IMG/VR virus record: IMGVR_UViG_3300020196_000016
Span: 18,595 to 82,594 of that record
From: a virus
Length of the DNA: 64,000 bases
Strand: one strand, 5' to 3'
In this document: positions 12,360 through 63,524 of the stretch, in pieces
Position numbering within the stretch: the stretch's first letter is position 1
Layout of the letters: the number at the start of each line of letters is the position of its first letter
Translations under genes and position numbers: made by a program
The notes under the pieces: model-generated
What the model saw: the letters and a program-made list of their open reading frames with translations, nothing else
What the model was told of the DNA's origin: nothing
The model's database searches: none

Positions 12360-13625
12360 TTACTTACGCTGCTTCACTTCAACAGCGATAACCCGTTCAT
12401 TGGTCTTGAAGTACGGGTTTCGTGCATTATCTTCGTCAGTCATCCACATACGCTGACACTTTGACGGAATAGGCTTGGGAGCACACATATCGGTCAAGAT
12501 AATATGACCGTCAAAGTTCCGCTCATTCACAAATTTGGTGGGAGTATCAAAGTTCGTACCACCACAAAGAACACGCTCTGCCTTCTTCTTTTGACCCTTC
12601 TTCCAAACATAAACCTTATCTTCGGCAACACCATCATCAAATGGAATAACCGTGAACTCTGCAAGTTCAGCCAGATTATCAAGTTCAGCAAAGAACGTGA
12701 TAAGCATATTATCACTCACAGAACCCGACTGGTCAATACTGATCGCAATCTTTGCAGTACGATTCGTCTTGCGACCCGCATGAATATACGGGAAACGACG
12801 ATTGATCTTGCGAACACTATTCTGCTTATCTGCCTTCTGGCTGGTTTTGATAAAATACCGCAAGACCTTCTTCCAGTCAACCTTGGATTGAAGACGCTTG
12901 ATAATATCCTTACGCATGGACTGTGAGATCGTACCCCACGAACCAGAACGATTAGCCTCGTTTGCAGCTTCATTCATAGCTTGACGCAAACGCTCCTTTG
13001 CGAGTTCACGCACTTCTTGTGGAATGGGATTCTTTCCATCTTCACCCCATCCTTCATGGTCGTCAAAGCCACTACCATTACCTTCACCATCTTGTGGCTG
13101 TCCGCTTCCACCACCACCTTCACCATTACCTTGGCCTTCACCTTGACCATTACCTTGACCTTGTTCCTCTTGCTTTTCCTTGATCTTGTCAAAGTAAAAG
13201 TCAGCGGATTCACCGCGAACAAAATCAGGATATGGTGCCTTGCCGGGAAGCAAACACATATCCCAAAGATTCTTAATAGAATCCTTACATTCCTTTGGAA
13301 AAATCTCGCTGTTGATCGCAAGATCAGTAGCATGATTCCACATACGCATTTGCGACTTATCAGGCATACGTCCCGTGACGTGTTCCAGAATAAGATGCAT
13401 GAACTCGTGCTTCAACACGATCATAACTTCTTCATCACTCAACTTCTCAAAGAAGTCAGGATTGTAAAGCATCTCAAAGGTTCCCGAATCCGGGTTAATA
13501 CAAACACCGGCAGTCGGAATCCTATTGGTGGGATACTTTTCAATATGACGAGAAAGAGCCGCATAAAACGGTTCTTCCTTGAGATAACGAGCAAGATGAC
13601 GATTCAGATCATAGTTAGACGACAT
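12360..13625 (-). CDS. DUF2201-type putative metallopeptidase with VWA-like domain
   Basis: HEFMH zincin motif, WNHATDLAIN, Gly/Gln linker, IDQSGS MIDAS, GGT.F, ILTD. Confidence 0.88.
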   Translation of the reverse strand: MSSNYDLNRHLARYLKEEPFYAALSRHIEKYPTNRIPTAGVCINPDSGTFEMLYNPDFFEKLSDEEVMIVLKHEFMHLILEHVTGRMPDKSQMRMWNHATDLAINSEIFPKECKDSIKNLWDMCLLPGKAPYPDFVRGESADFYFDKIKEKQEEQGQGNGQGEGQGNGEGGGGSGQPQDGEGNGSGFDDHEGWGEDGKNPIPQEVRELAKERLRQAMNEAANEANRSGSWGTISQSMRKDIIKRLQSKVDWKKVLRYFIKTSQKADKQNSVRKINRRFPYIHAGRKTNRTAKIAISIDQSGSVSDNMLITFFAELDNLAELAEFTVIPFDDGVAEDKVYVWKKGQKKKAERVLCGGTNFDTPTKFVNERNFDGHIILTDMCAPKPIPSKCQRMWMTDEDNARNPYFKTNERVIAVEVKQRK

Positions 13626-13677
13626 TGTCTTTATCCTATTGTTGCGGGTTTCTATCTGTGATCTACTGCCAGCCCCT

Positions 13678-13706
13678 ATCATAACACGGCACGGGAAAAA
13701 AGGCAA
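13678..13706 (-). promoter_or_regulatory. Sigma70-type promoter
   Basis: TTGCCT-17bp-TATGAT, extended -10. Confidence 0.8.
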
Positions 13707-14081: not shown

Positions 14082-14158
14082 TGGTAGACCAGGTGGGAGT
14101 TGCACCCACGACATTCCGCTTATAAGACGGACTCTCTAACTAACTGAGATACTGGTCC
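14082..14158 (-). tRNA. tRNA-Ile(UAU)
   Basis: GGACCAG acceptor stem, anticodon loop CT-TAT-AA, encoded CCA; T-loop reads TGCAACT. Confidence 0.88.
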
Positions 14159-14161
14159 ATA

Positions 14162-14440
14162 TTATAGTTTGTGATAGTTGAAATAAAACTTTTCAAGATC
14201 AGTTGTGTAAATACATTTCATTTTCTGTGAATAGCATTGTACCAACTTTACATCTTTAAGAACATTTACATTTTGCGGAGATACAAGACCCATTACAATA
14301 ACAACATCATCTTTTTCCATTCTAATCAATTCAAAATTATTAGACGGCTTCAAGATATTATATTCATTATGACGAATCCAGAAAGAGCCGGGACAAACAC
14401 TATTCTGGAAAGTGCTTTTCATTCTATTCTTGCGTCCCAT
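14162..14440 (-). CDS. Hypothetical protein
   Basis: AGGTG RBS, intact ORF. Confidence 0.65.
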   Translation of the reverse strand: MGRKNRMKSTFQNSVCPGSFWIRHNEYNILKPSNNFELIRMEKDDVVIVMGLVSPQNVNVLKDVKLVQCYSQKMKCIYTTDLEKFYFNYHKL

Positions 14441-14447
14441 ATATCAC

Positions 14448-14681
14448 CTATTTTGCTACTGGATATACAATAACTTCTTTGTTTCTTACCCAATCATTTA
14501 GCAAAGAAAAGCCGACTTTATTATCTTTTGTCTGATCGTAATTATCATAATATTCCCAATGAAAAAGATAATATCCTCCACCATACCAATCATTGTTATT
14601 GATTCTATCAATTATAACACCATTGTATACCAGAAACATTGGATTGTTGACTATCACTAAATCGCCAACATCATATTTCAT
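14448..14681 (-). CDS. GDL...PV family small protein
   Basis: MKYDVGDLV...IVYPVAK. Confidence 0.85.
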   Translation of the reverse strand: MKYDVGDLVIVNNPMFLVYNGVIIDRINNNDWYGGGYYLFHWEYYDNYDQTKDNKVGFSLLNDWVRNKEVIVYPVAK

Positions 14682-14917
14682 ACAGAAATAACTTTCCACT
14701 TTCCGAACTTGATAAGTTGCTTGATTGTGGATGGATCAGCACCCCACTCTTTATGATCTCCAACATTCCAAAGCATAATATAGTGATACAGCTTATCGTC
14801 CGGGACACGAAGAACAACACCGGTACCACCAGTATCACTTTGGATCAAATCACCAACTTTGATATTGAGATTATTGTTTTCAGTCATATTTAACCCAATA
14901 TTAGAAGTCAAAATCAA
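14678..14917 (-). CDS. GDL-family small protein
   Basis: NIKVGDLI...WKVISV; real start probably MTENN. Confidence 0.75.
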   Translation of the reverse strand: MILTSNIGLNMTENNNLNIKVGDLIQSDTGGTGVVLRVPDDKLYHYIMLWNVGDHKEWGADPSTIKQLIKFGKWKVISV

Positions 14918-15239
14918 GAGAGCGATTCAAACGAATATTAAACGGAGTTTCCCAAGTTCCCTTTGATGTATAATCATTATCATCTTCACCAAGAACGTGA
15001 TATGAATAATCATCTTGATTAAGATCTTCAAGTTCTTCAATAAATTCATTTACTGCCTTGACTTCCGGATAATCATCATACCACTTTACATCGTGAAACT
15101 CAACAAGTTTCCAGCCATTACATTCATGAATCTTGGAACCATCAATAAAGTTAGCAGCAACACGATCTTCCATTGTCTTGATAAGTTCAGAGAACCTTTC
15201 ATCTTTGAGAGCAAGAAGAACATCACTACGATAACCCAT
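14901..15239 (-). CDS. Hypothetical phage protein (MGYRSDV type)
   Basis: GGAG RBS before ATG 15239; VKWYDDYPEV and LGED motifs. Confidence 0.75.
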   Translation of the reverse strand: MGYRSDVLLALKDERFSELIKTMEDRVAANFIDGSKIHECNGWKLVEFHDVKWYDDYPEVKAVNEFIEELEDLNQDDYSYHVLGEDDNDYTSKGTWETPFNIRLNRSLDFDF

Positions 15240-15445
15240 ATTATCTCCGGTAGTTAGTGTTAAAGAAATGGTGGATATATCTAACGCTTTCCACCGAAAC
15301 GTCTTACCAGATATGGTATAATGATATAACGCCAAAGACACTTGACGGGAGAACACAATAATGTAGCCTACTATGCTAGTTGACTCCTATTCACATAGTA
15401 AGTATCATAAACACAGTCATGTCATAATCATGCTCATGTTTATAC

Positions 15446-15531
15446 TGGTGCCGAGAGTGGGACTTGAACCCACAAGATATTGCTATCAGAAGTTTTTGAG
15501 ACTTCCGTGTATACCATTCCACCATCTCGGC
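15446..15531 (-). tRNA. tRNA-Leu(CAA)
   Basis: GCCGAGA acceptor, anticodon loop CT-CAA-AA, long variable arm, GGTTCAAGTCC, CCA. Confidence 0.93.
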
Positions 15532-15562
15532 ATAACCCTATCTGTATAAGATAGGGTATTTT

Positions 15563-15825
15563 TTAGGCAAGAGTCAATAGGCAATTCTTAAAAATCTTTA
15601 CAACACGAATATCAGTAAAATCAACTACATCTCCACCCTCAAGAGCCACAATATTATCATCGGTTGTGAAAATCCAAGCAGCACCTTCATCACAAATAAT
15701 AACATCACCTGGCTCTGGTTCAGGAACTTATTGATTTGATTAATTTTAGTAAGCAGATCGTTATCTGCAATACTAACTCGGAATTGAATTTCTTTGAATG
15801 ACTTATTTTTTTGTTTATTGATAAT
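15563..15825 (-). pseudogene. infC: Truncated translation initiation factor IF3 C-domain (ATT start) joined out of frame to another gene's 3' end
   Basis: AGGAG RBS, ATT start, KEIQFRVSIADNDLLTKINQINKFL resembles the IF3 C-domain; similarity stops at 15721. Confidence 0.6.
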
Positions 15826-16013
15826 ATAATACTCCTTTGTTAATAATATACCGACGCCAATTCTGGCCTGACATTCTCAATAACAATCTCATCTTCTGGA
15901 ACACTTACACTAATAACTCGTTCATGCTGAACGGTATCAGTATCACCGTGAACAAAAGAAGCGAGAAGAATAAAAAACTTACTAAACATATCTCTTTCTC
16001 CTTTATAATACAA

Positions 16014-16089
16014 TGGTGGATCGGGTGGGGGTCGAACCCACGACCAATAGATTAAAAGTCTACTGCTCTACCAACTGAGCTACCAATCC
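16014..16089 (-). tRNA. tRNA-Lys(UUU)
   Basis: Canonical cloverleaf, anticodon loop CT-TTT-AA, GGTTCGAC, CCA. Confidence 0.95.
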
Positions 16090-16172
16090 AAAAAAGAATC
16101 CGTTTTTATCACAGAACGGATAAACTGTTTAGTGTTTTGCGGTTCAGAGTTTACACTAACAACTCCATTATC

Positions 16173-17234
16173 TCACTTCGGCTTCTTACCAGTCAGCAGT
16201 TCCGAAAGAAACTTGGAAGGCGAAGTTCCATCAACATTGATCTGGTGAAGAGCAGTAGTATTTTCCACCATACCCTTACCAAGAACATGCCACATCTTCA
16301 TAGCAGCTTCGGAAGGCAAGCTGATGAAATACCGTGCAAGATTCTCCAACTGATCCTTGGGCATCTTCTTTGCAAGGAAACCCTTGGCCTCAATCTTATC
16401 AATAAGAGCACAATGCTCAATGATACCAAACTTCTTCACCTTATCAAACTTACCATTGACGATAACGTCTTCGGGCGTAACCTGACGATCATACTTCTCC
16501 ACGAAGTCGTGAAGGGCAATCGCAGCCTCATAACCAACAAAACCAACTGCGATATTGCGAATATCCTTCATGTTGTTTTCGCTGAACATATCAGCAGAAG
16601 TCAACACATCATTACAACGCTTCCACGAACGACGAGAAGGATACACCTTATTGGGTTCAAAGTCACCCTTATGCTCAAGGTGTTCACGATTCAGATTGAT
16701 GAAATCGTAAACAAACTGATTAGTATTGTTCTTCGCCCAAGTGAGCCAATCTTCCACAGTAGGCGCAAGATCAAAGGTAGTCCACCGATCAAGTTCGGCG
16801 GGGTCCATCTCACCAACCTGATATTGTGCTCCGCTTTCGCCACCGTTGACAGCGGCAACAATAAGCGTATCGGGATGGAGAGTATGACCGTTCAGCTTAC
16901 GAGAATCAGTAAGTTCAAAGATACCTTGACGAACTTCAATAACTGCACGATCAACTTCATCAAGGAAGAGGAGAACGGCATTATTACACGCCATCTTGAA
17001 CCAGTCCGGGGGATTCCACTTGGTAGAATCACCGGAGATCACGGGCAACCCAACAAGATCACCCTCGGTCATCTGTGATGCACGGCGTTCAACAACCGGA
17101 AGATTCCTTTCCGCTGCAATCTGATACACAACTTGCGACTTGCCAATACCGTGACGACCACGGAGAAGAAGCGGCAACTTATTATCCAGAATCGGCTTAG
17201 CGATACGGAAGAAAGTATTGAAATCGAGCTGCAT
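16173..17234 (-). CDS. MoxR-like AAA+ ATPase
   Basis: Walker A GRHGIGKS, Walker B LLFLDEVDRA, MDPAELDRW, PSRRSW. Confidence 0.9.
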   Translation of the reverse strand: MQLDFNTFFRIAKPILDNKLPLLLRGRHGIGKSQVVYQIAAERNLPVVERRASQMTEGDLVGLPVISGDSTKWNPPDWFKMACNNAVLLFLDEVDRAVIEVRQGIFELTDSRKLNGHTLHPDTLIVAAVNGGESGAQYQVGEMDPAELDRWTTFDLAPTVEDWLTWAKNNTNQFVYDFINLNREHLEHKGDFEPNKVYPSRRSWKRCNDVLTSADMFSENNMKDIRNIAVGFVGYEAAIALHDFVEKYDRQVTPEDVIVNGKFDKVKKFGIIEHCALIDKIEAKGFLAKKMPKDQLENLARYFISLPSEAAMKMWHVLGKGMVENTTALHQINVDGTSPSKFLSELLTGKKPK

Positions 17235-17312
17235 TGTTTTCTCTCTCTAGTTTATCGTTATCTGACTTAGATCATCGTGCGGGATTGCCCGGTGATCTTT
17301 CCGACCCGTTGC

Positions 17313-17341
17313 ATCATAGCATGGATCGCGTTCGCTGTCAA
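17313..17341 (-). promoter_or_regulatory. Sigma70-type promoter
   Basis: TTGACA-17bp-TATGAT, extended -10. Confidence 0.88.
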
Positions 17342-17378
17342 CACACACTAACTTGCTTACAGTATAAAATACAGTAAG

Positions 17379-17453
17379 TGGAGCCAACGACAGGATTTGA
17401 ACCTGTATCTCGCACATTACAAAAGTGGAGTTTTACCGTTAAACTACATTGGC
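17379..17453 (-). tRNA. tRNA-Thr(UGU), anticodon stem imperfect
   Basis: GCCAATG acceptor, loop TT-TGT-AA, GGTTCAAATCC, CCA; two mismatches in the anticodon stem. Confidence 0.75.
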
Positions 17454-18580: not shown

Positions 18581-18865
18581 TTATGGAACATTCTTTTTTA
18601 CCCTTAACTTTTTTAGTCTATTATGTTTGATAATTGATTTGCCACTTTTTGGAACAAACCTTTGCCAATGAACATTGATAAGCCAACAACTATTACCTTT
18701 TTTTACTTCTAAAACAACACCAATATCGTCTTTTTCATATTTATAAAAACGAACAAGCTGTAATGCTTTTGCTCTCATTTGCACGAAATCACCAACTTGG
18801 AATGGTGGTATTTCTTCTGAACTTTTATTTGTCTCACTCATTAATTTTATAGCCAATTTCCTCAA
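18581..18865 (-). CDS. GDL-like SH3-type small protein
   Basis: FQVGDFVQM...IGVVLEV...INVHW. Confidence 0.7.
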   Translation of the reverse strand: MRKLAIKLMSETNKSSEEIPPFQVGDFVQMRAKALQLVRFYKYEKDDIGVVLEVKKGNSCWLINVHWQRFVPKSGKSIIKHNRLKKLRVKKNVP

Positions 18866-25740: not shown

Positions 25741-27315
25741 TCACTTGTCAATGATCGCGAAGTTAGTTGTTATAAGTGTAGTTGCTACACTCGCAGCATT
25801 TTGTAATGCTATTCTGGATACTTTGGCTGGATCAATAACACCGTTTTCAAGAAGATTACAATACTTTCTTGTAGCAATATTATATCCATCACCCTTCTTT
25901 TTAACTCGTTCAATAATAACATCTGCCGATTCGTCAGCGTTCTTTAACATTTGACGGAGTGGTGCTTCAACAACTTGGGACATAATATTTAAAGCATTCT
26001 TTTGCTGTTCGTTTTCTAAACCAATCTCGCTTGGTTTTAGTTTACTGAATGCTTTAATTAATATAACTCCTCCACCGTCAACTATACCTTCGTCTTGTGC
26101 TGACCGAACAGCTTCAAGAGCATCTTCAATACGGTGTTTTGTTTCAATCATTTCTACTTCTGTTGTTCCGCCAACATGAATTGTGGCAACACCACTAGAA
26201 AGACGAGTAATTCTTTCTTGTATCTTTTCACACTCACCCATATCTTCTGTTATTTTAAATTCTTCACGAAGAGAATCAATACGTTCTGAAATAACCTTTC
26301 CATCACCTTCACCGCCAACAATTGTTGTCCACAATTTATTTGATTCAATTGTTTTAGCACTACCAAGATCAGCAAGTTTTACATCTGTTAAGCTCTTTCC
26401 AGTTTGTGCTGAAATAAAAGTTGCACCAACAGCAATAGCCATATCCTGGAGAGTGTTAAATCTATCTTTACCATATGATGGTGCTTTGATAGAAGCAACC
26501 TTCATGCTACCACGCATGGCATTTACAATAAGTGCTGCTAATGCTTCACCGAAAATATCATCAGCAACAACAATCAGTGGACGCTTTGCTCGGGCAGCAA
26601 GTTCAAGTGTAGGCATCAACTGGTTTATATCTTCTACACGTTCATCAGTAATAAGAAACATCGGACGTTCATGTTTCATTACACCAAGACGTTCATTTGT
26701 AATAAATTGTCCAGCAGCAATACCACCCTTGAAACGGAATCCTTCTACAATTTCAAGTGTTGTTTGTAATGATTTACCTTCTTTAATTGTAACTGCGCCG
26801 TCTTTGCCGGTTAGATCAACCGCTTCTGCGATCAACTTACCAATCGTTTTATCACCATTAGCGGAGATGGTAGCAACATTTTCTACATCTTCCAGCTTCA
26901 TTACAGGTTTGGACAGCGACTTAATCTTATCTGTTAAGGCTGATACAACTTTATCTATACCGCGCTTTAATTCAATTGGAGAAACACCAGCAGCAAGATA
27001 CTTTTGGCTTTCAACAAGAATAGAACGAGCCAATACAGTTGATGTGGTTGTTCCATCACCAGCAGTATTGGCTGTTTCTTCTGCTGCTTGCTTCATAATC
27101 TGAACAGCAACATTTGCAACTGGATCCTCTGATATATTAACAGCGCGGGCAACCGAAACTCCATCCTTGGTTGCGAACGGACGACGATCTTTTTCATGGA
27201 TGATTACTGTTCGACCTCGTGGACCCATTGTTGAAGCCACATTATCAGCCAGCAATTCAATTCCTTCTAATAGTTTTTGATTTAATGCTTGTTCTCGACA
27301 AAATACTTTACTCAT
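25741..27315 (-). CDS. groL: Chaperonin GroEL
   Basis: TMGPRGR, TKDGVSVA, AGDGTTT, GVIDPAKV. Confidence 0.97.
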   Translation of the reverse strand: MSKVFCREQALNQKLLEGIELLADNVASTMGPRGRTVIIHEKDRRPFATKDGVSVARAVNISEDPVANVAVQIMKQAAEETANTAGDGTTTSTVLARSILVESQKYLAAGVSPIELKRGIDKVVSALTDKIKSLSKPVMKLEDVENVATISANGDKTIGKLIAEAVDLTGKDGAVTIKEGKSLQTTLEIVEGFRFKGGIAAGQFITNERLGVMKHERPMFLITDERVEDINQLMPTLELAARAKRPLIVVADDIFGEALAALIVNAMRGSMKVASIKAPSYGKDRFNTLQDMAIAVGATFISAQTGKSLTDVKLADLGSAKTIESNKLWTTIVGGEGDGKVISERIDSLREEFKITEDMGECEKIQERITRLSSGVATIHVGGTTEVEMIETKHRIEDALEAVRSAQDEGIVDGGGVILIKAFSKLKPSEIGLENEQQKNALNIMSQVVEAPLRQMLKNADESADVIIERVKKKGDGYNIATRKYCNLLENGVIDPAKVSRIALQNAASVATTLITTNFAIIDK

Positions 27316-34546: not shown

Positions 34547-35209
34547 TCACTCATTTTTGTTTGCTTCTTCTAATAGTTTTTTATAATATTCGCCAACAGC
34601 TATTATTTCTTCTGGTGTGGCATTATTTTTTATTATATTTGCTTTGCTTGATACAACAATAACATTGTCTTTCACATATCCCTTTTGTGGAATAATACGG
34701 TCTAATGATGGAGAATTTGGTTGTATTGTTTTTTTGCCGATTCCTACTTCAAGTGGAATGCCAAGAATAGGACATACTGCTGGTATAGTGATATCACTTT
34801 CATCTATATCAAAGGGTAAGTTTTTTTGTTTTGCTCTGTTACGAGCATGTCGTATCATCTCTTTTTCCGGATTGTTTTGATAGTATAGTTTCTGCTGTTC
34901 TTTCACTTTTTCCAAATTGTTTTGATAGTATAGTTTCTTGCGTTCTCTCTCTTTTTCCGGATTGTTTTGATAGTATAGTTTCTGCTGTTCTTTCACTTTT
35001 TCCAAATTGTTTTGACGGTATAGTTTCTGCTGTTCTTTCACTTTTTCCAAATTGTTTTGATAGTATAGTTTCTTGCGTTCTTTATATTTTTCCGCATTGT
35101 TTTGATACCATATTTTCTTTTGTTCCTTGAGACACGGCTTACAGACATTTTTGCCTTCATAAAACTCACTATCATCTTTTTCCATATTACATTTAATACA
35201 ACATTTCAT
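34547..35209 (-). CDS. HNH-type homing endonuclease with tandem repeats
   Basis: CIKC...CKPC, CPILGIPL...SPSLDRI...GYVKDNV...ANIIKN. Confidence 0.85.
   Translation of the reverse strand: MKCCIKCNMEKDDSEFYEGKNVCKPCLKEQKKIWYQNNAEKYKERKKLYYQNNLEKVKEQQKLYRQNNLEKVKEQQKLYYQNNPEKERERKKLYYQNNLEKVKEQQKLYYQNNPEKEMIRHARNRAKQKNLPFDIDESDITIPAVCPILGIPLEVGIGKKTIQPNSPSLDRIIPQKGYVKDNVIVVSSKANIIKNNATPEEIIAVGEYYKKLLEEANKNE
34860..35120. repeat. 45-bp tandem repeat (about 5-6 units) encoding KLYYQNNLEKVKEQQ
   Basis: ttgttttgatagtatagtttct recurs with 45-bp period. Confidence 0.88.
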
Positions 35210-36700: not shown

Positions 36701-38131
36701 TCATTTATCACTCACAGAGAAAATTTTATCAAAATCACACTCTAAAGAATCACAACATTTTATATTGTTTTTTAAAATATATAATATTTCTGATTCTTTT
36801 AGAGAAGGGTCTGCATCGATAGATAGTTTTTTTAATCTTTCTATGGTTTTCATAACATTATCTTGTAAAATATCAATTCCATAAGTTGTTAATAATATAT
36901 CTTTTACAGATATATTATTTTTTAATCTTTTATTAAAAATACCAACTAAAAAATTACCATCTCCACATGATGGATCTAAAAAAGTTTGACTTTTATCGAT
37001 CCAATTTTTAGTATCTAAAAGTTCCAGAATTTCATTAACTAATATTAGTGGCGTATAAACTTCTCCATATTCCTTAATTCTTTGTTGAGAAATAGTTTTA
37101 CTTTTGTTTTTATTTTTAATTTGTTTTTTATCTTTATTCAGATAGTCTATTTCTTCGTTTGTTAAATTAAAATATTTAAATATATCTTTATCATTATATT
37201 TTTTATTCAAAGGAAATAATGGAATAGATGAATATACTATTTCATTTCCAAATCCAGACCATTTTGCTGTTTTAAAAATATACTGCATAAGTCTACAATT
37301 TAAAAAATTTTTTAAATTTATTCCTTCTTCATCAGAGTCAACTAAAATATAATATCCCATATCTGTACAACCTAGATTTCCAGAATCATAAAATGCTTTA
37401 AAATAACCACTTCTAGACCACATAACTTTCTTTTTGTTAGAAAAATCTTGTTGTTTAGAAGAATACCAAATTTTATTATTTGTATGAAATACAGGAAATA
37501 TATGTATATCAGTTTTTACTTCTGATAAACTGATATTTATTTTCTTTTTTAAAAGTTTATTTTTCTGAAAAAGTAGATTTTTCTTTTTTTCTTCATCTAC
37601 GCAATTTAATATTCTTTCTTCATATTTATGAAGTTTTTTTTGTTTTAATATTTCAGCTCTTCTGATTACGTTATGACATGTCACATAGTCATAATTAATT
37701 TTAAATTTTGGAATATCTGAAAACATTACTTTTTTATGAATTTGATATGAAATATCACAAAAATCATTTGATATCCATGATATGCTATCATCGATATCGA
37801 TTTGATAGTTTTTATTAAAAGAAACAATATCAGTTTTAATATTGTTTTTTGATTTCTTCATAAAAAAGTGACTGAATGTACTTCCTATATCCGGGAAGTA
37901 TTTTTTGGTATCTAAATTTAAATAAATCAAATCTGATTTTTTAAAAAGATCCAAAACTTTATTTGATGGCGAACCCCATGATTGAGGGGTTATCCAGCCA
38001 ATATGACCATTTTCTTCAAGCCAATCATTAAAAGCTTTTAATGTAAAATCGATCCATATTTTATGTTGAGTTTTATTTTTTGTTATATTATTCTGAAATG
38101 GTGGATTACCAAATATATTATTAAATTTCAC
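36701..38131 (-). CDS. N6-adenine DNA methyltransferase, circularly permuted
   Basis: GNPPF at the N-terminus; GEVYTP, FLDPSCGDGNF and YGIDI at the C-terminus. Confidence 0.85.
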   Translation of the reverse strand: MKFNNIFGNPPFQNNITKNKTQHKIWIDFTLKAFNDWLEENGHIGWITPQSWGSPSNKVLDLFKKSDLIYLNLDTKKYFPDIGSTFSHFFMKKSKNNIKTDIVSFNKNYQIDIDDSISWISNDFCDISYQIHKKVMFSDIPKFKINYDYVTCHNVIRRAEILKQKKLHKYEERILNCVDEEKKKNLLFQKNKLLKKKINISLSEVKTDIHIFPVFHTNNKIWYSSKQQDFSNKKKVMWSRSGYFKAFYDSGNLGCTDMGYYILVDSDEEGINLKNFLNCRLMQYIFKTAKWSGFGNEIVYSSIPLFPLNKKYNDKDIFKYFNLTNEEIDYLNKDKKQIKNKNKSKTISQQRIKEYGEVYTPLILVNEILELLDTKNWIDKSQTFLDPSCGDGNFLVGIFNKRLKNNISVKDILLTTYGIDILQDNVMKTIERLKKLSIDADPSLKESEILYILKNNIKCCDSLECDFDKIFSVSDK

Positions 38132-39297: not shown

Positions 39298-39789
39298 TTA
39301 TAGTTTATTACTCATTGAAAATATATCTGGTTGTGATGGTGGTTTCTTTGGATTACCAAACTCAACAACCATTGATGGAAATGGTGCTGAATTCTTCTGT
39401 CCTCCAAATTTTAATCGGCCTTTGATAAAAGAAATGCTCTTCACAAGAACTGGATCCATACAAAATTCATGGAACCACTTTGTGTCTGTTCTTGCTGGCA
39501 GCAACATTACAACTGTTGTGTTTCCAGAAATAACTTCGTGATATGCTTTACAAACCCAATCATATGTTTTGCTATATGGTGGATTGATAAATACAGTTTC
39601 ACCTTTCCAGCTTTGTGCTAATCCATTTTCTTTTATTGTATAATGTTTAGCACATTTATTATTTGTTCCATCACTTGCCGGATCAAGTGTGAAATTATAT
39701 TTCTGATTCAATTTGTCAAACATATTCTGTGGAGTAGTCCATTCATCACTCTTATGACTAAACAATACATCCATATCTTTTTTCAACAT
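39298..39789 (-). CDS. Phage N6-adenine methyltransferase (Dam-like)
   Basis: DEWTTPQ, FTLDPA, FINPPY, LLPARTDT.WF, GRLKF, APFPS. Confidence 0.92.
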   Translation of the reverse strand: MLKKDMDVLFSHKSDEWTTPQNMFDKLNQKYNFTLDPASDGTNNKCAKHYTIKENGLAQSWKGETVFINPPYSKTYDWVCKAYHEVISGNTTVVMLLPARTDTKWFHEFCMDPVLVKSISFIKGRLKFGGQKNSAPFPSMVVEFGNPKKPPSQPDIFSMSNKL

Positions 39790-40307
39790 ACCTCACCAAC
39801 ACTTTCTTGTTTTAACAAATGCTTTTTTATAAAGGTTTGATTTTCTTTTAAGGAAACCCAACGCAAATTTTCTATATTGTTATTAAGTGGATTGTTATCA
39901 ATGTGATCTACAACACAACTTTCTCTTATGAATTTTCTCGCACTTTCTGGTGTGATATCCCATTCATTTTTTGGAATAGGAGGATAATCATCAATAGATT
40001 TAAATGTTTCTATTACAAGTCTGTGAACTGAAATAGTAATTCTACAAGTTTTAGCTTTCTTACTTTCTCTTCTATATTCAAAATCTTGATATAGATCGAT
40101 AGGTATACACAGAGCTATTGATTGTCGAGCACCCTTAAAAGAACCTTTTCCAGTTGGAACTTCATTTTGTTTTTTTAAAACAAAACCTTTTTTATTCCTA
40201 ATCCTACCAAGATTAGAAACTTCATATCCCGGTAATACTTTTTTATTCTTTATTGCCGGTTTCCATATTTCTTCTTCACTTATTAGTGTCTGTGCTGCCA
40301 AATCCAT
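39783..40307 (-). CDS. NUMOD4-HNH homing endonuclease
   Basis: EIWKP...YEVSNLGRIR, VHRLV, VDHIDNNPLNN...NLRW. Confidence 0.92.
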   Translation of the reverse strand: MDLAAQTLISEEEIWKPAIKNKKVLPGYEVSNLGRIRNKKGFVLKKQNEVPTGKGSFKGARQSIALCIPIDLYQDFEYRRESKKAKTCRITISVHRLVIETFKSIDDYPPIPKNEWDITPESARKFIRESCVVDHIDNNPLNNNIENLRWVSLKENQTFIKKHLLKQESVGEVC

Positions 40308-40773
40308 TGCTACCTCTGCTACTTATAGCGATATTATCCCGATAAAGTTCGGCGCTGTCAACTGAAATCGGACGAACATGGATTACTGGAAATAATACCG
40401 CTTGTGCGATTTTATCACCGGGTTTAATCATTTGTGGATTTCTTCCAACATTATGTAGGATAATCACAACTTCTCCATCATATCCGGGATCAATTACACC
40501 ACCACCAACAAGAAGTTCTTTTTTAGAACTTACACTACTGCGGTTCTTGATTTCAAGACAAAAACCATGTGGAACAGCAAATCGCAGTCCTGTTCGTAAT
40601 TTCATGCTTTGACTCGGCATGATTACAATACTTCCAGCTGGCATATTCTTTTCTTCATTATGTTCGCCTAATTTTACATCGGGAGAAAAGAAAAGATCCA
40701 ATCCAACATCACTTGGATTTGCTCTGGTTGGAGGAAAAACATTATCGTGAACTACGGCATATTCTAATAGCAT
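40276..40773 (-). CDS. dut: dUTPase
   Basis: GLDL, NRSS, GVIDPGYDGE, GDKIAQ, RGSNGFGST. Confidence 0.95.
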   Translation of the reverse strand: MLLEYAVVHDNVFPPTRANPSDVGLDLFFSPDVKLGEHNEEKNMPAGSIVIMPSQSMKLRTGLRFAVPHGFCLEIKNRSSVSSKKELLVGGGVIDPGYDGEVVIILHNVGRNPQMIKPGDKIAQAVLFPVIHVRPISVDSAELYRDNIAISSRGSNGFGSTDTNK

Positions 40774-41142
40774 TACCATTCTCCCTTCTTAAATTCCATA
40801 TTGTAAAGACCAAAATCTTCGCTAACGCGAACAAGCATAACAACTGGTTTACATTCATATAAAAGTGTTGAAAAATCAATACCCATCATATTTTCACTAA
40901 CAACTTCTTTTTCTGCTTCCATGCGTGCCTTTCTAATTCCAGCAAACAAAATATCGTTCATGAATTTTCCACCTTCTTTTTAAGTTCAGAACACATACGA
41001 TTTAAATTTTCAATATTTCGCATATGTGATTGTGGATCAATATATTGCGGAGAAGTGAGAGCATAATTATATGCTTTCATTGTTCTATCGACATTAATAA
41101 AAAATGAGAGTAGCTTTTCTTTTAATTCTTTATCCATTTATT

Positions 41143-48813: not shown

Positions 48814-49437
48814 TTAGAGTCCAAAAGCAGCTAATGTATGCTCAAATTCTCCACATTCTTTTACAAGTTTCAACATTTCTTGTGCGATTTCGCGAATTTC
48901 TACTTGTGCTGCCTCATCATTACGCAGACGCTGGAAATGTACAAATGAACGCATATTGAACATTACATCAAATGTAAGCTGTGTTGCATATGGAAGATAA
49001 AAACGAGCACTTTCTTTTGCTCGCTTACGACCAAGTGTTGGTGTTAGACGAGTGAGAGCAGCGTGATATTTTTCTAAACTTTGTATACAATGATTTTGTA
49101 ATAGAAGCTGTTCGTGATTTGGCCAATCATCGGGAACATAATATTTATCGTCTTTTAGTTCTTTATATCTCGCACTCTCACAGTTGATAGAAACACCAAT
49201 ACGGTGTTTCAAAAAATGAATATGGCTTGCGATTTCGGCTGTTACGAGAAAGTGAATTGATGACTTTTCAAATGGTGTTTCATGACCGTTTTCAGCAAGC
49301 ATTTTCAATAGTGCTGGAATACGGTTTTGTTTTTCTTCTGTTAATTCACGAGAAGTGGACGTCCAGGCCGACATTGCATGAGAACTGTCGCTTCCATAAG
49401 TTCCAATAAGTTCAATGGTGTTTGTTCTATTTATCAT
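48814..49437 (-). CDS. thyX: Flavin-dependent thymidylate synthase
   Basis: HETPFE, KHR...SARY, ESARFYLP, NMRS, AQVEIR. Confidence 0.93.
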   Translation of the reverse strand: MINRTNTIELIGTYGSDSSHAMSAWTSTSRELTEEKQNRIPALLKMLAENGHETPFEKSSIHFLVTAEIASHIHFLKHRIGVSINCESARYKELKDDKYYVPDDWPNHEQLLLQNHCIQSLEKYHAALTRLTPTLGRKRAKESARFYLPYATQLTFDVMFNMRSFVHFQRLRNDEAAQVEIREIAQEMLKLVKECGEFEHTLAAFGL

Positions 49438-56205: not shown

Positions 56206-58275
56206 TCAAGTCACGACACAAGCACCACCTACACAAGCAGCTTCACCAGATAAATTTGTATAATCTTGATCTTCTCTAATCAGATCAATATCAACACTTA
56301 CTAATTGAGACATTCTTTTATTATATTCTGCTTCTCCAATATCTTCAAATGGCGCCTGGTGATAAGTGTGGTCGCTATGAGGTAGAAGTGAAATAGCAGC
56401 ATAGCTATCTTTATTCTTCCACATCCATTCAGTAACTTGTGCCCATTCATGATTACGAACTGAAACAGTAATAGAAACGTTGTGTGTGTTATCGCCTCTA
56501 CGATGACCACCTTGAATCCAATCAAGATATACTTTCTTCATCCGTTCAAGTTGTTGAATTGCTGTTTCTTTTCTTGTAATAGATCCTTCGGGTGCTCGCT
56601 GTGGCAATGTTAGAATTGCATTGTTCTTGTTAAATGTATCATCTTCAAGAAGTTCTGGATGAAACATTTTTAGATAACCATACATTGTTTCTGTCTTTAA
56701 AAGACGCATACGACGAAGATAAAACTCATTGTGCCATGCATGAATACCAGATGAACAGCCAAGAACACAAGAAGTTGTTCCACTTGGTTTTACAGTTGTT
56801 ACACGGGCAGCTTTATTGATACCAAGAATTTTAGCCATACGTTCATTTTCTTTTGTTGCCGCTTCTGCTGCCGCAGCCATATCAAGAGCCAATACTTTAC
56901 CACTTGCAATACCAGTCATACCAATACCAAGTAGTGCTTCTTTTTCTGTTGTTTTACGCCAAATATCACGCAAATAATGAAAATCAGTATATGAAGCTTG
57001 AAGCGTTCCAATGAAAGCAGCAGCTTTTACACGATTTTCATAATCAGCTTGATCTTGTATATCGCTTGCGTTGATTTCACAAAGATTACAGAATTGATTT
57101 GTTCGCAGGCCGATTTCACCACATGGATTTGTGCCCCAATCTGGGTTATTTGTCCAGAATATACCTGGTTCACCAGCTTTGCTTTCTTCGGTAATTTTCA
57201 AGATACGTTCAAAGTCAGCTTTTTTGCGCATTTTATGACGAACAAGAACAACACTATTATTTGCACGACCACGCTGTTCTTGAACATAAAACCACGGAAC
57301 AATACCGTTATCTAAATAGAATGGAATATCATGCTCACCAACATCAGCCTCAACTGTGCGGACTCCATAGGCAGGGTCATTGTAGGCTATTTTAACGCGT
57401 TTATAAGTGGTGTTTGTTGCTTCATCAACAGTACGAATTTCTAGTTTAACTTCATTACCATATTGATCATGTTTTATTAGCGTAACAGATTCATGTGATA
57501 CAAGTTTAAAATTACTCTTGCAAGTAAGCATTGATTCATCATCAATATCAAATAGAGAAATCATTGCTGAACGACGAATACCACCAGCAAGAACAGCGTC
57601 TGCCAAATGACAAAGAATATCGTGAATCTGAACTGAGCGGAGTTGTTCTCCATTTTCTACACTATCAAGAATACCACGAACATTCTCTAATGCACGCTTT
57701 AATGGTTCTGAACCTGGAGCTTTACCACCACCGGTTTTAATTGGTGTGCCTTTTGCGCGAATTGAAGAATAATCAAAACGGACTTTTGGTGAATTTGGCT
57801 GCATGTATGACTTCATCAATACCTTTACAGCATCAGCCCAACCTTCGATGCTGTCACCAACAAGAAATTTCTTTTCTCCCCGTGTTGGTTTTGTTACTGG
57901 TGGTAGTTTTTCAATGTGTTTTTTCTGTACCGAATAACCTACTCCACAACCTGCAAGCAAGAGGAACATAGTTTCACTAAAACTATGAATATTATCAATA
58001 TGCTGAAATGAGCAATTGTAAATACGTGAATTGTTTACTTCAATTGCTTTTCCACCAAACTGCATGGAACGCATTGAAGGAAGAACTTTTTTATCATACA
58101 CAAATTTGTATGCTTCTTCAATCTGATCTTTTAGATCAGGAAATTTAGCAACGTGCATTGCTTTATTACGATCAACGAGTTCAACCCAATTTTCACGACG
58201 ACCAAGTTTCTCGTCAAATTTAGCATATCGTGAAAAAACCGTTACGTCTGATAATATTTTGCTTGCTTTATCCAT
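56206..58275 (-). CDS. nrdJ: Class II (B12-dependent) ribonucleotide reductase
   Basis: LPSMR, YNC, GCGVG, GGIRRSA, TNPCGEI, FCNL, VKPSGT, C-terminal CVGGAC. Confidence 0.92.
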   Translation of the reverse strand: MDKASKILSDVTVFSRYAKFDEKLGRRENWVELVDRNKAMHVAKFPDLKDQIEEAYKFVYDKKVLPSMRSMQFGGKAIEVNNSRIYNCSFQHIDNIHSFSETMFLLLAGCGVGYSVQKKHIEKLPPVTKPTRGEKKFLVGDSIEGWADAVKVLMKSYMQPNSPKVRFDYSSIRAKGTPIKTGGGKAPGSEPLKRALENVRGILDSVENGEQLRSVQIHDILCHLADAVLAGGIRRSAMISLFDIDDESMLTCKSNFKLVSHESVTLIKHDQYGNEVKLEIRTVDEATNTTYKRVKIAYNDPAYGVRTVEADVGEHDIPFYLDNGIVPWFYVQEQRGRANNSVVLVRHKMRKKADFERILKITEESKAGEPGIFWTNNPDWGTNPCGEIGLRTNQFCNLCEINASDIQDQADYENRVKAAAFIGTLQASYTDFHYLRDIWRKTTEKEALLGIGMTGIASGKVLALDMAAAAEAATKENERMAKILGINKAARVTTVKPSGTTSCVLGCSSGIHAWHNEFYLRRMRLLKTETMYGYLKMFHPELLEDDTFNKNNAILTLPQRAPEGSITRKETAIQQLERMKKVYLDWIQGGHRRGDNTHNVSITVSVRNHEWAQVTEWMWKNKDSYAAISLLPHSDHTYHQAPFEDIGEAEYNKRMSQLVSVDIDLIREDQDYTNLSGEAACVGGACVVT

Positions 58276-60685: not shown

Positions 60686-61564
60686 TTATATAAAACTCTT
60701 TAAAAATTCAAAAGACATTCTTTTTCGATATTTTCCATTTTTCATTAAAGATTTAAAATTAGTAAGATAAAAATCTTTTGTCTTATTTCTCCACTCAGTA
60801 ATATTTTTATTAATTAATTTACAATCTAAATCATTTTCTGAATAAAATAAAGAATAATTTCTAGATGTATGTTTTAAAAATTTATCTCTATTAAAATTAT
60901 TATCTAAAGGTCTAATGTTTATATTTTCTACAGATGTTTTGTCAATTGCTGAAAAAATATAATTACCGTAAGAAACGTTGAATTTAATTTTTGTACTTCC
61001 TTTATTAGATTCTACCTTTTCTATCTCTTCTCCATTTACGTAAATTTTATGTTCTGTTTCGTATGGAACAAAATATGCAACTCCGACAGGTGAATCGGTA
61101 TCGGAAAAAAGCTTATAATCTAATTTATCCCATGCTAATAAGCGGTTTCGAAACATTTTTGTTCCATAATATGTCGACGGAATTATAGCTGAAACATAAT
61201 CGCAATTTTCAAGCATTAACTCTAAGCAATCTAAATATAAATCTTCATTTTTAAGTGATAAATTTTCACCTTTTCTTTTCATAGCATTTTTTGCTAAATA
61301 AGGAGGATTAGTTATACAAATTTTAAAATTTTTTGGAAAATTAGAAATAGTATCTCTTTGAATTATATCATTTCTACCTGGAATTATATCATAAGCTTTC
61401 CATTTATGATTAGAGAAAAAATTAGTTATATTACCACTTCCAGCAAAAGGCTCTAAAATATCTTCTCCTTTTGGGAGCATTTCATTCCAAATTTCAAAGG
61501 CGTTACCCTTAAATGGATTTATTATTGTGTAATATTGTCCTAGTATCTGCTTCTGACTGAGCAT
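60686..61564 (-). CDS. Amino (N6/N4) DNA methyltransferase
   Basis: GQYYT, LEPFAGSG, TNPPY. Confidence 0.85.
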   Translation of the reverse strand: MLSQKQILGQYYTIINPFKGNAFEIWNEMLPKGEDILEPFAGSGNITNFFSNHKWKAYDIIPGRNDIIQRDTISNFPKNFKICITNPPYLAKNAMKRKGENLSLKNEDLYLDCLELMLENCDYVSAIIPSTYYGTKMFRNRLLAWDKLDYKLFSDTDSPVGVAYFVPYETEHKIYVNGEEIEKVESNKGSTKIKFNVSYGNYIFSAIDKTSVENINIRPLDNNFNRDKFLKHTSRNYSLFYSENDLDCKLINKNITEWRNKTKDFYLTNFKSLMKNGKYRKRMSFEFLKSFI

Positions 61565-62261
61565 ATTTAATTAGCCTTTCTTGAAATTCCACGTGGTTAA
61601 CTATCCAGATATTATCTTTTTGTTTTCGAAGGAGATTATTTTTTTTATCTTCATCTCCGTCTACAAGAACAACATAAAGTTTTTCTTTTGGCTCATTTGT
61701 TGCCCAATTTATAAAATCATCTGCTTCTTTTTCAACATTATCTTGATGGCCTCCAATTCCAACAACAACTTTCGCAAAAATATATCCCAAAATTTGCTTT
61801 TCATCATACCGACTTTTAATTAAACCGTCAATAGTTTTTAAATAAACATCGCTATTTTTAAGTTTCTTTTCGGTATCCGCAGCATTTATGACGCCTCCGG
61901 AACGCAAAGGTCTAAGTGCTTGCTTACCTCTTGTTGGAATTGCTTCTACTGTGATTTTATCTTTTAAAAATTCACCTATACCATTTATAATTTTTTTTTC
62001 TTCTATGCAGCCTTGACGAGATGCGTTTATACATATAACACAAGATACTGTGTAAGCATATCCTTCGTTTTCTTTGCAGATTTTTAGAAGTGAATCTTCA
62101 GATAAGTTGTTCGGATGATATTTTAAATATCTTTCTAAAGATTTTTTATTATAAGATTGTAATTGTTTAAAAGACTTGATGTTTTTAAATTGTTTAAAAA
62201 CTAAATTTATATTATTTTTATTATTATTTTCACGTTCATTTATTGCATCATAAGTAAACAT
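61509..62261 (-). CDS. Putative type II restriction endonuclease
   Basis: KTIDG...FAK...GGHQDNV..E...VLVDG; overlaps the methyltransferase gene. Confidence 0.6.
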   Translation of the reverse strand: MFTYDAINERENNNKNNINLVFKQFKNIKSFKQLQSYNKKSLERYLKYHPNNLSEDSLLKICKENEGYAYTVSCVICINASRQGCIEEKKIINGIGEFLKDKITVEAIPTRGKQALRPLRSGGVINAADTEKKLKNSDVYLKTIDGLIKSRYDEKQILGYIFAKVVVGIGGHQDNVEKEADDFINWATNEPKEKLYVVLVDGDEDKKNNLLRKQKDNIWIVNHVEFQERLIKYAQSEADTRTILHNNKSI

Positions 62262-62417: not shown

Positions 62418-62623
62418 ACATTATCCTACCTTTCTTTGTGATTAAATCCAATTTCTACAACAAAATCTGGTTTACCAGAACAATCCATAAACTTTACACT
62501 ATTTTTATCAAGAACTATTCCTTTTTGATAACACCACATTTTTAGTGCTTCAAATACTTCGTCTTGATTAAAAGTATAAAGACCTTCACTTGTGTTTTTA
62601 TCAAACTTGCTATTCATATGTTC

Positions 62624-63119
62624 CTATGCTGCAATAAACTCATTTACAATAAACTTACCGTGGTGTGCATCACCATATCGTTCAAGGAAATGGTTTGTAA
62701 TATTACTTGGACGACCGACAAGACCGATCATATCACGATTCTTAAGAGTGTTCACTTCTCCCAGATCATCAACATATACAACTCGGGAAACACCTGCGTT
62801 CTTTAGGGCATGCTGACAGAGCGGACAAGGCTTTCCGTTCTTGTTTTGACGAGCATACGGGCACGAAGTGTTATTAAAACGATAAATATAAATTTTGCTA
62901 CCACTTGCTCGTTCTCCCATCTTGCTCAACAGATCAATTTCAGCATGCATAGAACACTTGAACACACTCTTGTTTCGTGAATAACGACGCTTATTGACGC
63001 CGAAGTTAATAATCTTGCCACCCTTGACACCAAAGGCAACAATCTGATGCTGGAGAGTATCATCCCGAAATTGGGATGCAATATCTTCAGCGAGGTACTA
63101 CAAAATCAAGATACTTCAT
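62624..63119 (-). CDS. Zn-dependent cytidine/dCMP deaminase-like protein, 5' end interrupted by 10 extra nt (63095-63104)
   Basis: HAE and PCPLC motifs; AGGAG RBS and ATG at 63119; the main frame is open only from 63097. Confidence 0.85.
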
Positions 63120-63148
63120 GGTATCAGGCTCCTATGTTGGTTGAACCA

Positions 63149-63177
63149 AGCATAGCACGCGATCCGTGGGCTGTCAA
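63149..63177 (-). promoter_or_regulatory. Sigma70-type promoter of the deaminase gene
   Basis: TTGACA-17bp-TATGCT, extended -10. Confidence 0.85.
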
Positions 63178-63524
63178 TCTGCGGGGACGAAAACATTTTT
63201 AAATTCATTTGGTAAGAGGTTGAATTGAATTAATTTAGCTTTTATTGTTATTAGATTTTTTGTTATTGCTTTATGTATTCTGTGGTGTCCATCAAGAATA
63301 TATATTATATTTTGCTTATCATCTACAAGAATTAATATTGGATATTTTAAATTTGCTGCTTGTATTTTAGTTTGTTCTTGTAAGTTATTATCCCAAGAAA
63401 GCAAATATGGAATTAATTGTTTAATAGATATATTTTTTTCTGGAAGATGTGAAGAAATATTTAATAAATCAGATAAATTTATTTTATTTCCGTCTTTTTC
63501 CCAAAATGTATTGTTTGTACTCAT
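63174..63524 (-). CDS. ParB/Srx-like domain protein
   Basis: YPILI...ILDGHHRIHKA. Confidence 0.75.
   Translation of the reverse strand: MSTNNTFWEKDGNKINLSDLLNISSHLPEKNISIKQLIPYLLSWDNNLQEQTKIQAANLKYPILILVDDKQNIIYILDGHHRIHKAITKNLITIKAKLIQFNLLPNEFKNVFVPAD

Follow-up and report, generated by a model that had tools for sequence, protein, structure and literature searches.

The sequence analyzed here, called the window throughout, is a 64,000-nucleotide stretch (positions 18,595 to 82,594) of the IMG/VR virus record IMGVR_UViG_3300020196_000016, and its minus strand carries a phage deaminase gene whose reading frame is broken close to the start codon. A sigma-70-type promoter with 10 of 12 hexamer matches and a Shine-Dalgarno sequence precede an ATG that opens a leader open reading frame (ORF) of ten codons (Table 1). 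The deaminase itself lies in the +1 frame, which is closed on the upstream side by a TAG (63100-63098) and is then open (YLAEDIASQF...HAE...PCPLC) as far as its own TAG at 62626-62624. No ATG, GTG or TTG occurs in the +1 frame across the 45 codons that follow the upstream TAG; the first of them is a GTG at 62965, which would give a 113-aa ORF. The initial annotation of this DNA, made from the sequence alone, had described the promoter, the ribosome-binding site, the short leader product, the blocked +1 frame and the missing start codon, and our reanalysis of the sequence confirmed each of them.

Table 1. Coordinates of the features at the deaminase locus and elsewhere in the window.
Feature	Positions	Strand	Details
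Promoter of the deaminase cassette, sigma-70-type	63149..63177	minus	-35 TTGACA 63177-63172, 17-nt spacer, TG-extended -10 TATGCT 63154-63149
Shine-Dalgarno AGGAG	63128..63132	minus	8 nt before the ATG
0-frame leader ORF MKYLDFVVPR, ten codons	63087..63119	minus	ATG 63119-63117, TGA 63089-63087
Shift site TTT GTA G	63098..63104	minus	TTT codon 6 63104-63102 (E site), GTA codon 7 63101-63099 (P site), skipped G 63098
+1-frame deaminase body, 157 codons and TAG stop	62624..63097	minus	HAE 62947-62939, PCPLC 62830-62816
Start-codon-in-loop hairpin	63110..63125	minus	GATAC 63125-63121 / GTATC 63114-63110; candidate upstream duplex, weak support
12-bp hairpin of the initial annotation	63076..63119	minus	arms 63119-63108 and 63087-63076; unsupported as a functional element
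Downstream hairpin CATCCC/GGGATG	63061..63078	minus	+42 to +59; in part of the family only
63-aa ORF (MNSKFDKNTSEGLYTFNQDEVFEALKMWC...)	62426-62617	minus	begins 6 nt after the deaminase stop
Restriction-endonuclease-like gene	61512-62261	minus	PHROG 18366
Eco57I-type methyltransferase	60689-61564	minus	
Ribonucleotide reductase	56209-58275		
Thymidylate synthase	48817-49437		
dUTPase-like gene	40279-40779		
PurZ-like gene, 338 aa	33206-34219	minus	PHROG 1211
Homing-endonuclease-like genes (GIY-YIG, HNH, endonuclease VII-like)	90-872, 12363-13706, 34550-35209, 39786-40307	minus	
DNA methyltransferase-like genes, at least four	6870-7691, 36704-38131, 39301-39789, 60689-61564		
GroEL-like chaperonin	25744-27315		
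Four tRNA genes	14082-17453	minus	Ile-tat, Leu-caa, Lys-ttt, Thr-tgt

By its Pfam, PHROG and motif matches the product is a predicted zinc deaminase of about 164 residues with the cytidine/dCMP-deaminase fold. The body matches Pfam PF00383 (dCMP_cyt_deam_1) with 30.7 bits against a gathering cut-off of 25, as well as the PHROG dCMP/deoxycytidylate deaminase families, in agreement with the deaminase identity first given to it. The H, A, E, P, C and C of the HAE/PCxxC zinc motifs show no variation among the 12 family members aligned, and two further invariant motifs, YRFNN and CQH, are specific to the family. Residues 1-8 may extend the first helix, judging from the Pfam alignment, which begins at profile position 11. 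The family names and the nucleotide-metabolism gene context suggest conversion of dCMP to dUMP as the putative activity. No NCBIfam equivalog and none of the PADLOC defense families (0 matches) matched the deaminase, and the NCBIfam model for antiphage dCTP deaminase, NF041025, gave 12.2 bits against a cut-off of 400 and so did not match either.

Database entries for the broken gene are truncated products of 108 or 143 aa. Of the related protein clusters, 45 in number, 40 fall short of 160 aa, and most of these are recorded as truncated proteins of 105-152 aa; 17 of the 45 are exactly 108 aa long, their first residue being the Met before the catalytic His. The JGI records label the family TadA, and the Protein Atlas holds generic CDA clusters only, the truncated 108-aa form among them. 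A search of a phage database gave no DNA-level match to the deaminase locus, and tblastn against the same database returned only two Streptomyces phages (four records) at 31-36% identity. Gene callers systematically mis-annotate this deaminase family, and the layout in Table 1 amounts to a correction of the annotation.

The broken layout was found again in related loci. A start and six codons followed by [G/C]TA-G and then GC-TGA are present in 20 of 20 loci from IMG/VR, whose proteins are 63-88% identical and in which start and TGA lie 33 nt apart. A further 23 loci, from metagenomes and one metagenome-assembled genome, comprise 15 with this main layout, 4 with a GTT-T variant and 4 that are unbroken (L039, its copy L048, L040 and L047). 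A +1 break is thus present in 39 of the 43 fetched loci, in many assemblies and with differing flanking bases, some of the 43 being the same contig fetched twice. The GTT-T variant, or second form (L041 and L043-L045), reads TTG GTT T TAC and also needs a +1 shift; its break lies some 20-30 nt after the ATG, it has no +1-frame TAG, its +1 frame is open back to an ATGA start, and in L045 the 0-frame TGA is missing as well. Two further IMG/VR scans with the unbroken homologues as query gave no new loci, and a profile scan for more loci returned the same contigs. For comparison of the leaders we aligned 24 of the 29 distinct ones, L002, L008, L027, L028 and L037 being omitted as near-copies. GGAG of the Shine-Dalgarno sequence is kept in all 24, and a TTGACA or TTGACC -35 element lies at a similar distance 5' of the start in many relatives, not in all.

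In a tree of 33 distinct bodies with a midpoint root, two unbroken loci, the second form and the main-form locus L042 make up one clade (support 100/100) that is nested among main-form sequences, and within it the unbroken L040 and the second-form L041 are sisters (support 100/99). The distant unbroken locus L047 falls outside the nested clade, on a long branch in this midpoint-rooted tree. The simplest reading of the tree would be one old gain of the break followed by at least two losses, and the break persists over the whole sampled clade.

The unbroken homologues bear directly on the position and size of the skip. By their likeness to the N termini of these proteins (MRYWDLV, MKYHNYS, MNFRRLA), codons 1-7 of the leader ORF are the true N terminus of the deaminase. 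In all six unbroken homologues (P0039, MRYWDLVE-LAE; P0020, MKYHNYSP-IAE; P0017, which has the same sequence as the L040 ORF, MNFRRLAY-VAE; P0016, MSNFKNLVD-LAE; L039, MSNYNTLVH-LAE; L047, ..RYDSLIR-FAE) 8-9 residues stand before [LIVF]-A-E, and skipping 1 nt at the break leaves 8, whereas skipping 10 nt leaves 5. The fused 0/+1 product has 164 aa, compared with 163-167 aa in the unbroken homologues, and is collinear with them. The second-form locus L041 differs from its unbroken sister L040 by exactly one extra base between codon 7 and a Tyr codon, and a Tyr at position 8 is common to L040, L041, L042 and 17 of the 24 main-form leaders.

On the downstream side, 23 of 24 leaders encode x-[LIVF]-A in the +1 frame with six different codons for the hydrophobic residue (CTC, ATC, TTC, ATA, CTG and GTA), as the unbroken homologues do, and from +26 it reads [LIVF]-A-E in 23 of 24; the alternative 0-frame reading there would give P, D, V, S, H, R or Q and then R, S or G. 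On the upstream side the +1 frame is blocked by the TAG up to +22, and the shift window is 4 nt. Codon 7 is GTA in 23 leaders and CTA in one, and it is GTT in the second form; the skipped base at +22 is G in the main form and T in the second. Taken together, the TAG up to +22, the conserved +1 codons and the comparison of L040 with L041 indicate that the ribosome would read codon 7, skip +22 and continue in the +1 frame.

The same data bear on the idea that the ten-codon ORF is a separate leader peptide and that the deaminase begins in the +1 frame after the TAG by non-canonical initiation or by termination-reinitiation, which we regard as quite improbable. The two ORFs overlap by just 14 nt, a geometry that passages of PMC3711429 describe for coupled genes, and a TTG or GTG stands directly before the TAG in 23 of 24 leaders. 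Against this, the remaining leader, L020, reads TTC-TAG, the 45 codons after the TAG hold no canonical start, and the first +1 codons (TAC, GAG, GGC or AAC, then CTC, ATC, TTC or ATA) are neither start codons nor conserved as nucleotides. Moreover, codons 1-7 match the unbroken N termini residue for residue (MRYLDFV/MRYWDLV; MNYRRLV/MNFRRLA). Recoding is required rather than a downstream start, as had originally been proposed.

We estimated selection on the body from 15 gapless sequences, in which 68 of 105 pairs were usable and the remainder were saturated or too close. The ratio of nonsynonymous to synonymous substitution rates (dN/dS) has a median of 0.11 at a median dS of 1.43, so that synonymous sites are near saturation, and the 45 codons from the TAG to the first canonical start give 0.14. 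The deaminase body is translated and under purifying selection. When a gene loses its frame close to the start codon, decay or error is usually the cause, and a pseudogene had been named at the outset as one alternative. A pseudogene or a sequencing or assembly error is nevertheless scarcely credible here, given the low dN/dS, the conserved layout and the recurrence of the same break between varied flanks. DNA contigs from two other samples also span the site with 0 gaps, and contigs of relatives from two RNA libraries are collinear across it. The contigs that cross the site without gaps argue against an assembly error and, weakly, against repair at the RNA level. The break is inherited, kept by selection and common to a whole family of freshwater phage genes.

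Other ways of removing the stop or the extra base were considered and rejected. A sense reading of TAG does not agree with the 1131-aa polymerase and the 689-aa reductase, both uninterrupted under code 11, nor with the lack of any suppressor tRNA. UAG editing and transcriptional slippage are contradicted by L012, which has no homopolymer at the site, and by the collinear RNA-library contigs. Separately, the RNA-library contigs X22 and X24, which come from relatives and from two studies, end 6-8 nt 5' of the ATG (63125-63127), where the DNA contigs continue; at best this hints weakly at a 5' end, from transcription or processing, that would leave the RNA shorter than expected from the promoter.

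Selection was also evident in the few bases around the break. There are 12 fourfold-degenerate columns with an invariant codon family in all 24 leaders, and the third base varies in 11 of them; the only fixed column is a GCT whose T (+31) creates the 0-frame TGA. T+16, T+18, T+20, A+21 and G+22 are invariant in 24 of 24 aligned leaders, and A+21 and G+22 make the +1-frame TAG, which closes the shift box on its upstream side. Because the bases of the TAG and of the TGA are fixed, both flanking stops look selected. A "frameshift box" between flanking stops is a classic geometry in the account that parts of PMC3711429 give.

These fixed bases weigh on a rival explanation, that a 1-nt insertion became fixed and is merely tolerated, spontaneous and unstimulated +1 errors in the 4-nt shift window giving sufficient trace enzyme. 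The concept is that of a compensatory frameshift, for which a section of PMC5009743 gives the G-run of herpes thymidine kinase as a case. Tolerance would account for the lack of a re-pairing motif and of a consensus structure and for the presence of the same heptamer in frame in other long ORFs of the genome, and the nested unbroken relatives show that the break can be lost without harm. It does not account for A+21, G+22 and T+31, which are fixed although 11 of 12 fourfold sites vary and dS is saturated, a pattern that indicates selection on the box and not mere tolerance. Nor does it readily explain why the break lasts over the whole sampled clade and why a strong promoter and Shine-Dalgarno sequence have been retained, and we consider it unlikely.

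The initial annotation had placed the break within a 12-bp hairpin and proposed that ten bases, TTTGTAGTAC, are left out of the reading. Deletion of 63104-63095 does restore the frame and yields MKYLD-LAEDIA, and the 12-nt arms are able to pair at 11 of 12 positions, with one G-U pair and one A-G mismatch. The pairing is, however, no more than chance would give. Folded alone, the hairpin has an energy of -5.9 kcal/mol (z -0.47) that was equaled by 66 of 200 shuffles, and in a 91-nt context the minimum-energy fold prefers other pairs. Across the 24 relatives only 64.9% of cells pair, and there is no consensus fold. The frame break is real and far from chance, whereas the 12-bp hairpin carries no signal.

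Translational bypass of these ten bases, or of another multi-base gap in the hairpin, in the manner of T4 gene 60, is accordingly very improbable. It would leave 5 residues before LAE in place of the 8-9 of the homologues; its take-off codon GAT and resumption codon CTC are unmatched, and no 0-frame stop follows the take-off codon, GAT being followed by TTT. The bases skipped would include +1-frame codons that are conserved at the protein level as x-[LIVF]-A, as in the unbroken homologues. A need for only a 1-nt correction in homologues had been set down in the initial annotation as evidence against its own model, and a 1-nt correction is what the homologues need. Hops from GAT to GAT, from TTT to TTT and from TAT to TAC were also rejected, as they would delete conserved residues or are not conserved in relatives.

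Among the other structures, each of the 19 distinct leaders has an equivalent of the hairpin that holds the start codon in its loop, the 3' edge lying at +10 to +14. The downstream hairpin was rejected as a general stimulator, being absent from whole subclades and about 20 nt from the site; 71.5% of its cells pair and 3 of its 6 pairs show double changes, and it is broken in about one-third of cells. Pairing of UUGUAG with downstream Leu-Gln codons was rejected too, as L020 shows no compensation in an alignment judged by eye. An Rfam scan of 62500-63400 gave no match at E <=1.

We propose that a selected +1 ribosomal frameshift at codon 7, without P-site re-pairing, would make the deaminase of about 164 residues, and on the sequence comparisons above we put the probability of this at roughly 0.7. 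That the event takes place on the ribosome is a step that we infer. Ribosomes would initiate at the ATG, read seven codons (MKYLDFV) and, with GUA in the P site, skip the following G; decoding would resume at UAC CUC GCU GAA (Y-L-A-E...) and go on until the gene ends. Without the shift, translation would meet the UGA three codons on and yield a peptide of 10 residues. In the 0 frame the A site would be occupied by GUA, GGA, GGG, GAA or UUA, mostly A-ending and never a stop, and with the UGA lying three codons past the shift the codon patterns put the ribosome in the +1 frame before it is reached. The shift probably serves to gate or throttle deaminase production behind a promoter and ribosome-binding site that are otherwise strong.

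Several elements could help the shift. One possible helper is a weak E-site codon (UUU, UGU or UUG). In the main form the start-codon hairpin might refold as an upstream duplex beside the E site, a placement in which duplexes stimulate +1 shifts on 70S ribosomes according to portions of PMC6321510. The second form may use a Shine-Dalgarno-like run, AGGAGG or GGGAG, placed exactly 3 nt 5' of GUU_U; a run at this distance 5' of the shift codon is present in 4 of 4 second-form loci and in 0 of 24 main-form leaders. A poorer 0-frame codon that ends in A (GUA, GGA, GAA or UUA) over a C- or G-ending +1 codon (UAC, GAG, GGC or AAC) might also favor the change of frame, provided that the host is poor at decoding codons of the A-ending kind.

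A number of observations count against a frameshift of this kind. Re-pairing in the P site is impossible in the main form, since tRNA-Val on GUA_G or tRNA-Leu on CUA_G would be left unpaired on UAG; in the second form, GUU_U to UUU, 2 of 3 positions pair. The site has no recognized +1 shift-prone motif, and in the 0 frame its A site holds an ordinary sense codon. Of 32 occurrences of the motif in the genome, the deaminase site alone has the ORF geometry, and a TTTGTAG-like motif lies twice in frame within long ORFs (genome positions 78112 and 74829, minus strand), so that the heptamer alone is no efficient shifter. The efficiency of the shift could be very low. RNAalifold found essentially no consensus on the leaders (-0.54 kcal/mol), and the hairpin around the start codon has little stability (median -6.5 kcal/mol, z -1.2; z -0.32 for the hairpin in the window) and is present also in the unbroken L039. 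The Shine-Dalgarno-like run likewise occurs in the unbroken L040 (CGGAGG TTG). The RNA-library contigs come from relatives and might reflect DNA carry-over.

In a further candidate mechanism, a specialized tRNA of the host or the phage, its anticodon loop enlarged, would decode codon 7 and the next base ([G/C]UAG or GUUU) as one quadruplet. The NUAG of the main form is invariant, and reading GTAG in one step would give the same collinear 164-aa product. However, the 82.6-kb phage contig encodes four ordinary tRNAs, none with an 8-nt loop, and several such tRNAs would be required to accommodate G and C as first bases together with a third quadruplet, GUUU. The in-frame TTTGTAG of the other long ORFs would also be misread, and we hold quadruplet decoding to be even less probable than reinitiation after the TAG. 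On the comparisons made here, the locus looks like a genuine site of +1 recoding that is conserved, had not been annotated before and has an unusual shift sequence. Our literature searches turned up no account of a phage deaminase with a frameshift.

The phage contig has 35% G+C and carries genes for a DNA polymerase, a replicative helicase, ribonucleotide reductase, thymidylate synthase and dUTPase-like and PurZ-like proteins, a gene set that makes a role of the deaminase in nucleotide supply plausible. The 338-aa PurZ-like protein matches the PHROG 1211 family "2-aminooxy adenylosuccinate synthetase" with E 1e-67, and the phage may replace adenine with 2-aminoadenine. The four phage tRNAs read AUA, UUG, AAA and ACA, three of them A-ending codons and the fourth UUG, a set in keeping with an AT-rich phage whose host is poor at decoding these codons. 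The deaminase cassette (62600-63200), with its own consensus-like promoter on the coding strand, has 39-46% G+C compared with 18-33% in the genes to either side, and a second estimate puts it at 42-45% with 18-39% in its flanks; its composition may be constrained, or the cassette may have been acquired separately. The 63-aa ORF lies beside the deaminase in many relatives (L001, L004-L007, L010, L015 and L016), not in all, and is more distant in L038; it is in frame with the deaminase in the window and out of frame in others. Between this small gene 3' of the deaminase and an exonuclease gene is the restriction/methyltransferase pair, whose genes overlap by 53 nt and have 17-33% G+C. The small gene and the exonuclease gene are adjacent in L004, L006 and L015, and the pair therefore looks like an insertion.

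The family offers a widespread and naturally replicated case, from lake-water phages, of a shift codon that is unable to re-pair. Three site variants and the unbroken revertants are built-in comparators with which the sequence requirements are testable. Should the shift prove conditional, decoding fidelity would here be the means by which a virus times or limits a nucleotide-modifying enzyme, a new instance of such use.

As an enzyme, the product invites comparison with the cyanophage S-TIM5 Cd (Protein Data Bank (PDB) 4p9c) and other small phage dCMP deaminases, with which it has the HAE and PCxxC zinc motifs in common. Like those deaminases it matches Pfam PF00383 and the PHROG dCMP-deaminase families, and its gene is found in the company of thymidylate synthase, dUTPase-like and ribonucleotide reductase genes. 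It bears only a very weak similarity to the PDB deaminase, a profile search of the PDB giving E = 0.002 over 23 residues, and it has YRFNN and CQH motifs of its own.

As a recoding site, the locus resembles T4 gene 60 in that a phage gene of nucleotide metabolism or replication is interrupted at the mRNA level. In gene 60, 50 nt are skipped between matched GGA codons; the take-off codon is followed by a stop, and a stem-loop at the take-off site and a signal in the nascent peptide are present too, whereas the deaminase skips one base and none of these features was found. To our knowledge very few +1 programmed frameshifts are established in bacteria and phages, namely prfB, structural genes of Listeria phages and a handful of candidates, and almost all of those that we know of use a re-pairing codon next to a stop. 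The Listeria phages PSA, A118 and A500 have +1 frameshifts at CCC_UGA and ACA_CCC, as recounted in parts of PMC5009743. These too are +1 ribosomal frameshifts in phage genes, but they lie at the 3' ends of structural genes, where they add C-terminal extensions and give two products, and they rely on a proline codon that can re-pair, combined with either a stop codon or a pseudoknot. In the deaminase the shift falls at codon 7 of an enzyme gene and gives a single useful product.

A close bacterial parallel in layout is prfB, the gene for release factor 2, in which an early +1 shift is likewise needed for the only functional product, the unshifted product is a short peptide, and homologues keep the break except in some unbroken lineages. 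The Shine-Dalgarno-like run 3 nt before GUU_U in the second form (L041 and L043-L045) recalls the prfB shift sequence AGGGGG-UAU-CUU_U given in PMC6321510, in a passage on that gene. The main form differs from prfB in having no such run and in a P-site GUA or CUA that cannot re-pair in the +1 frame. Its A-site codon is a sense codon rather than a stop, with the conserved UGA three codons further on, and no autoregulatory logic is obvious.

In shifting without pairing of the peptidyl-tRNA in the new frame and in skipping one base, the deaminase site is like the Ty3 type of yeast. The Ty3 system operates on eukaryotic 80S ribosomes and uses a slow codon of the AGU/AGG type. We know of no established bacterial or phage example of a +1 shift without re-pairing. 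In yeast, +1 frameshifting independent of P-site re-pairing is known from work covered in part of PMC12661321. It is conceivable, though on balance doubtful, that the box TTT-[G/C]TA-G, bounded by selected stops, represents a new class of bacterial and phage +1 signal without re-pairing, in which one base would be skipped or occluded, possibly pushed by an upstream duplex beside the E site, and which would serve as a gate tying deaminase output to the translation state of the host during infection. If so, GTA-G, CTA-G, GTT-T with its Shine-Dalgarno-like run and the unbroken revertants would form an evolutionary ladder linking a Ty3-like with a prfB-like arrangement.

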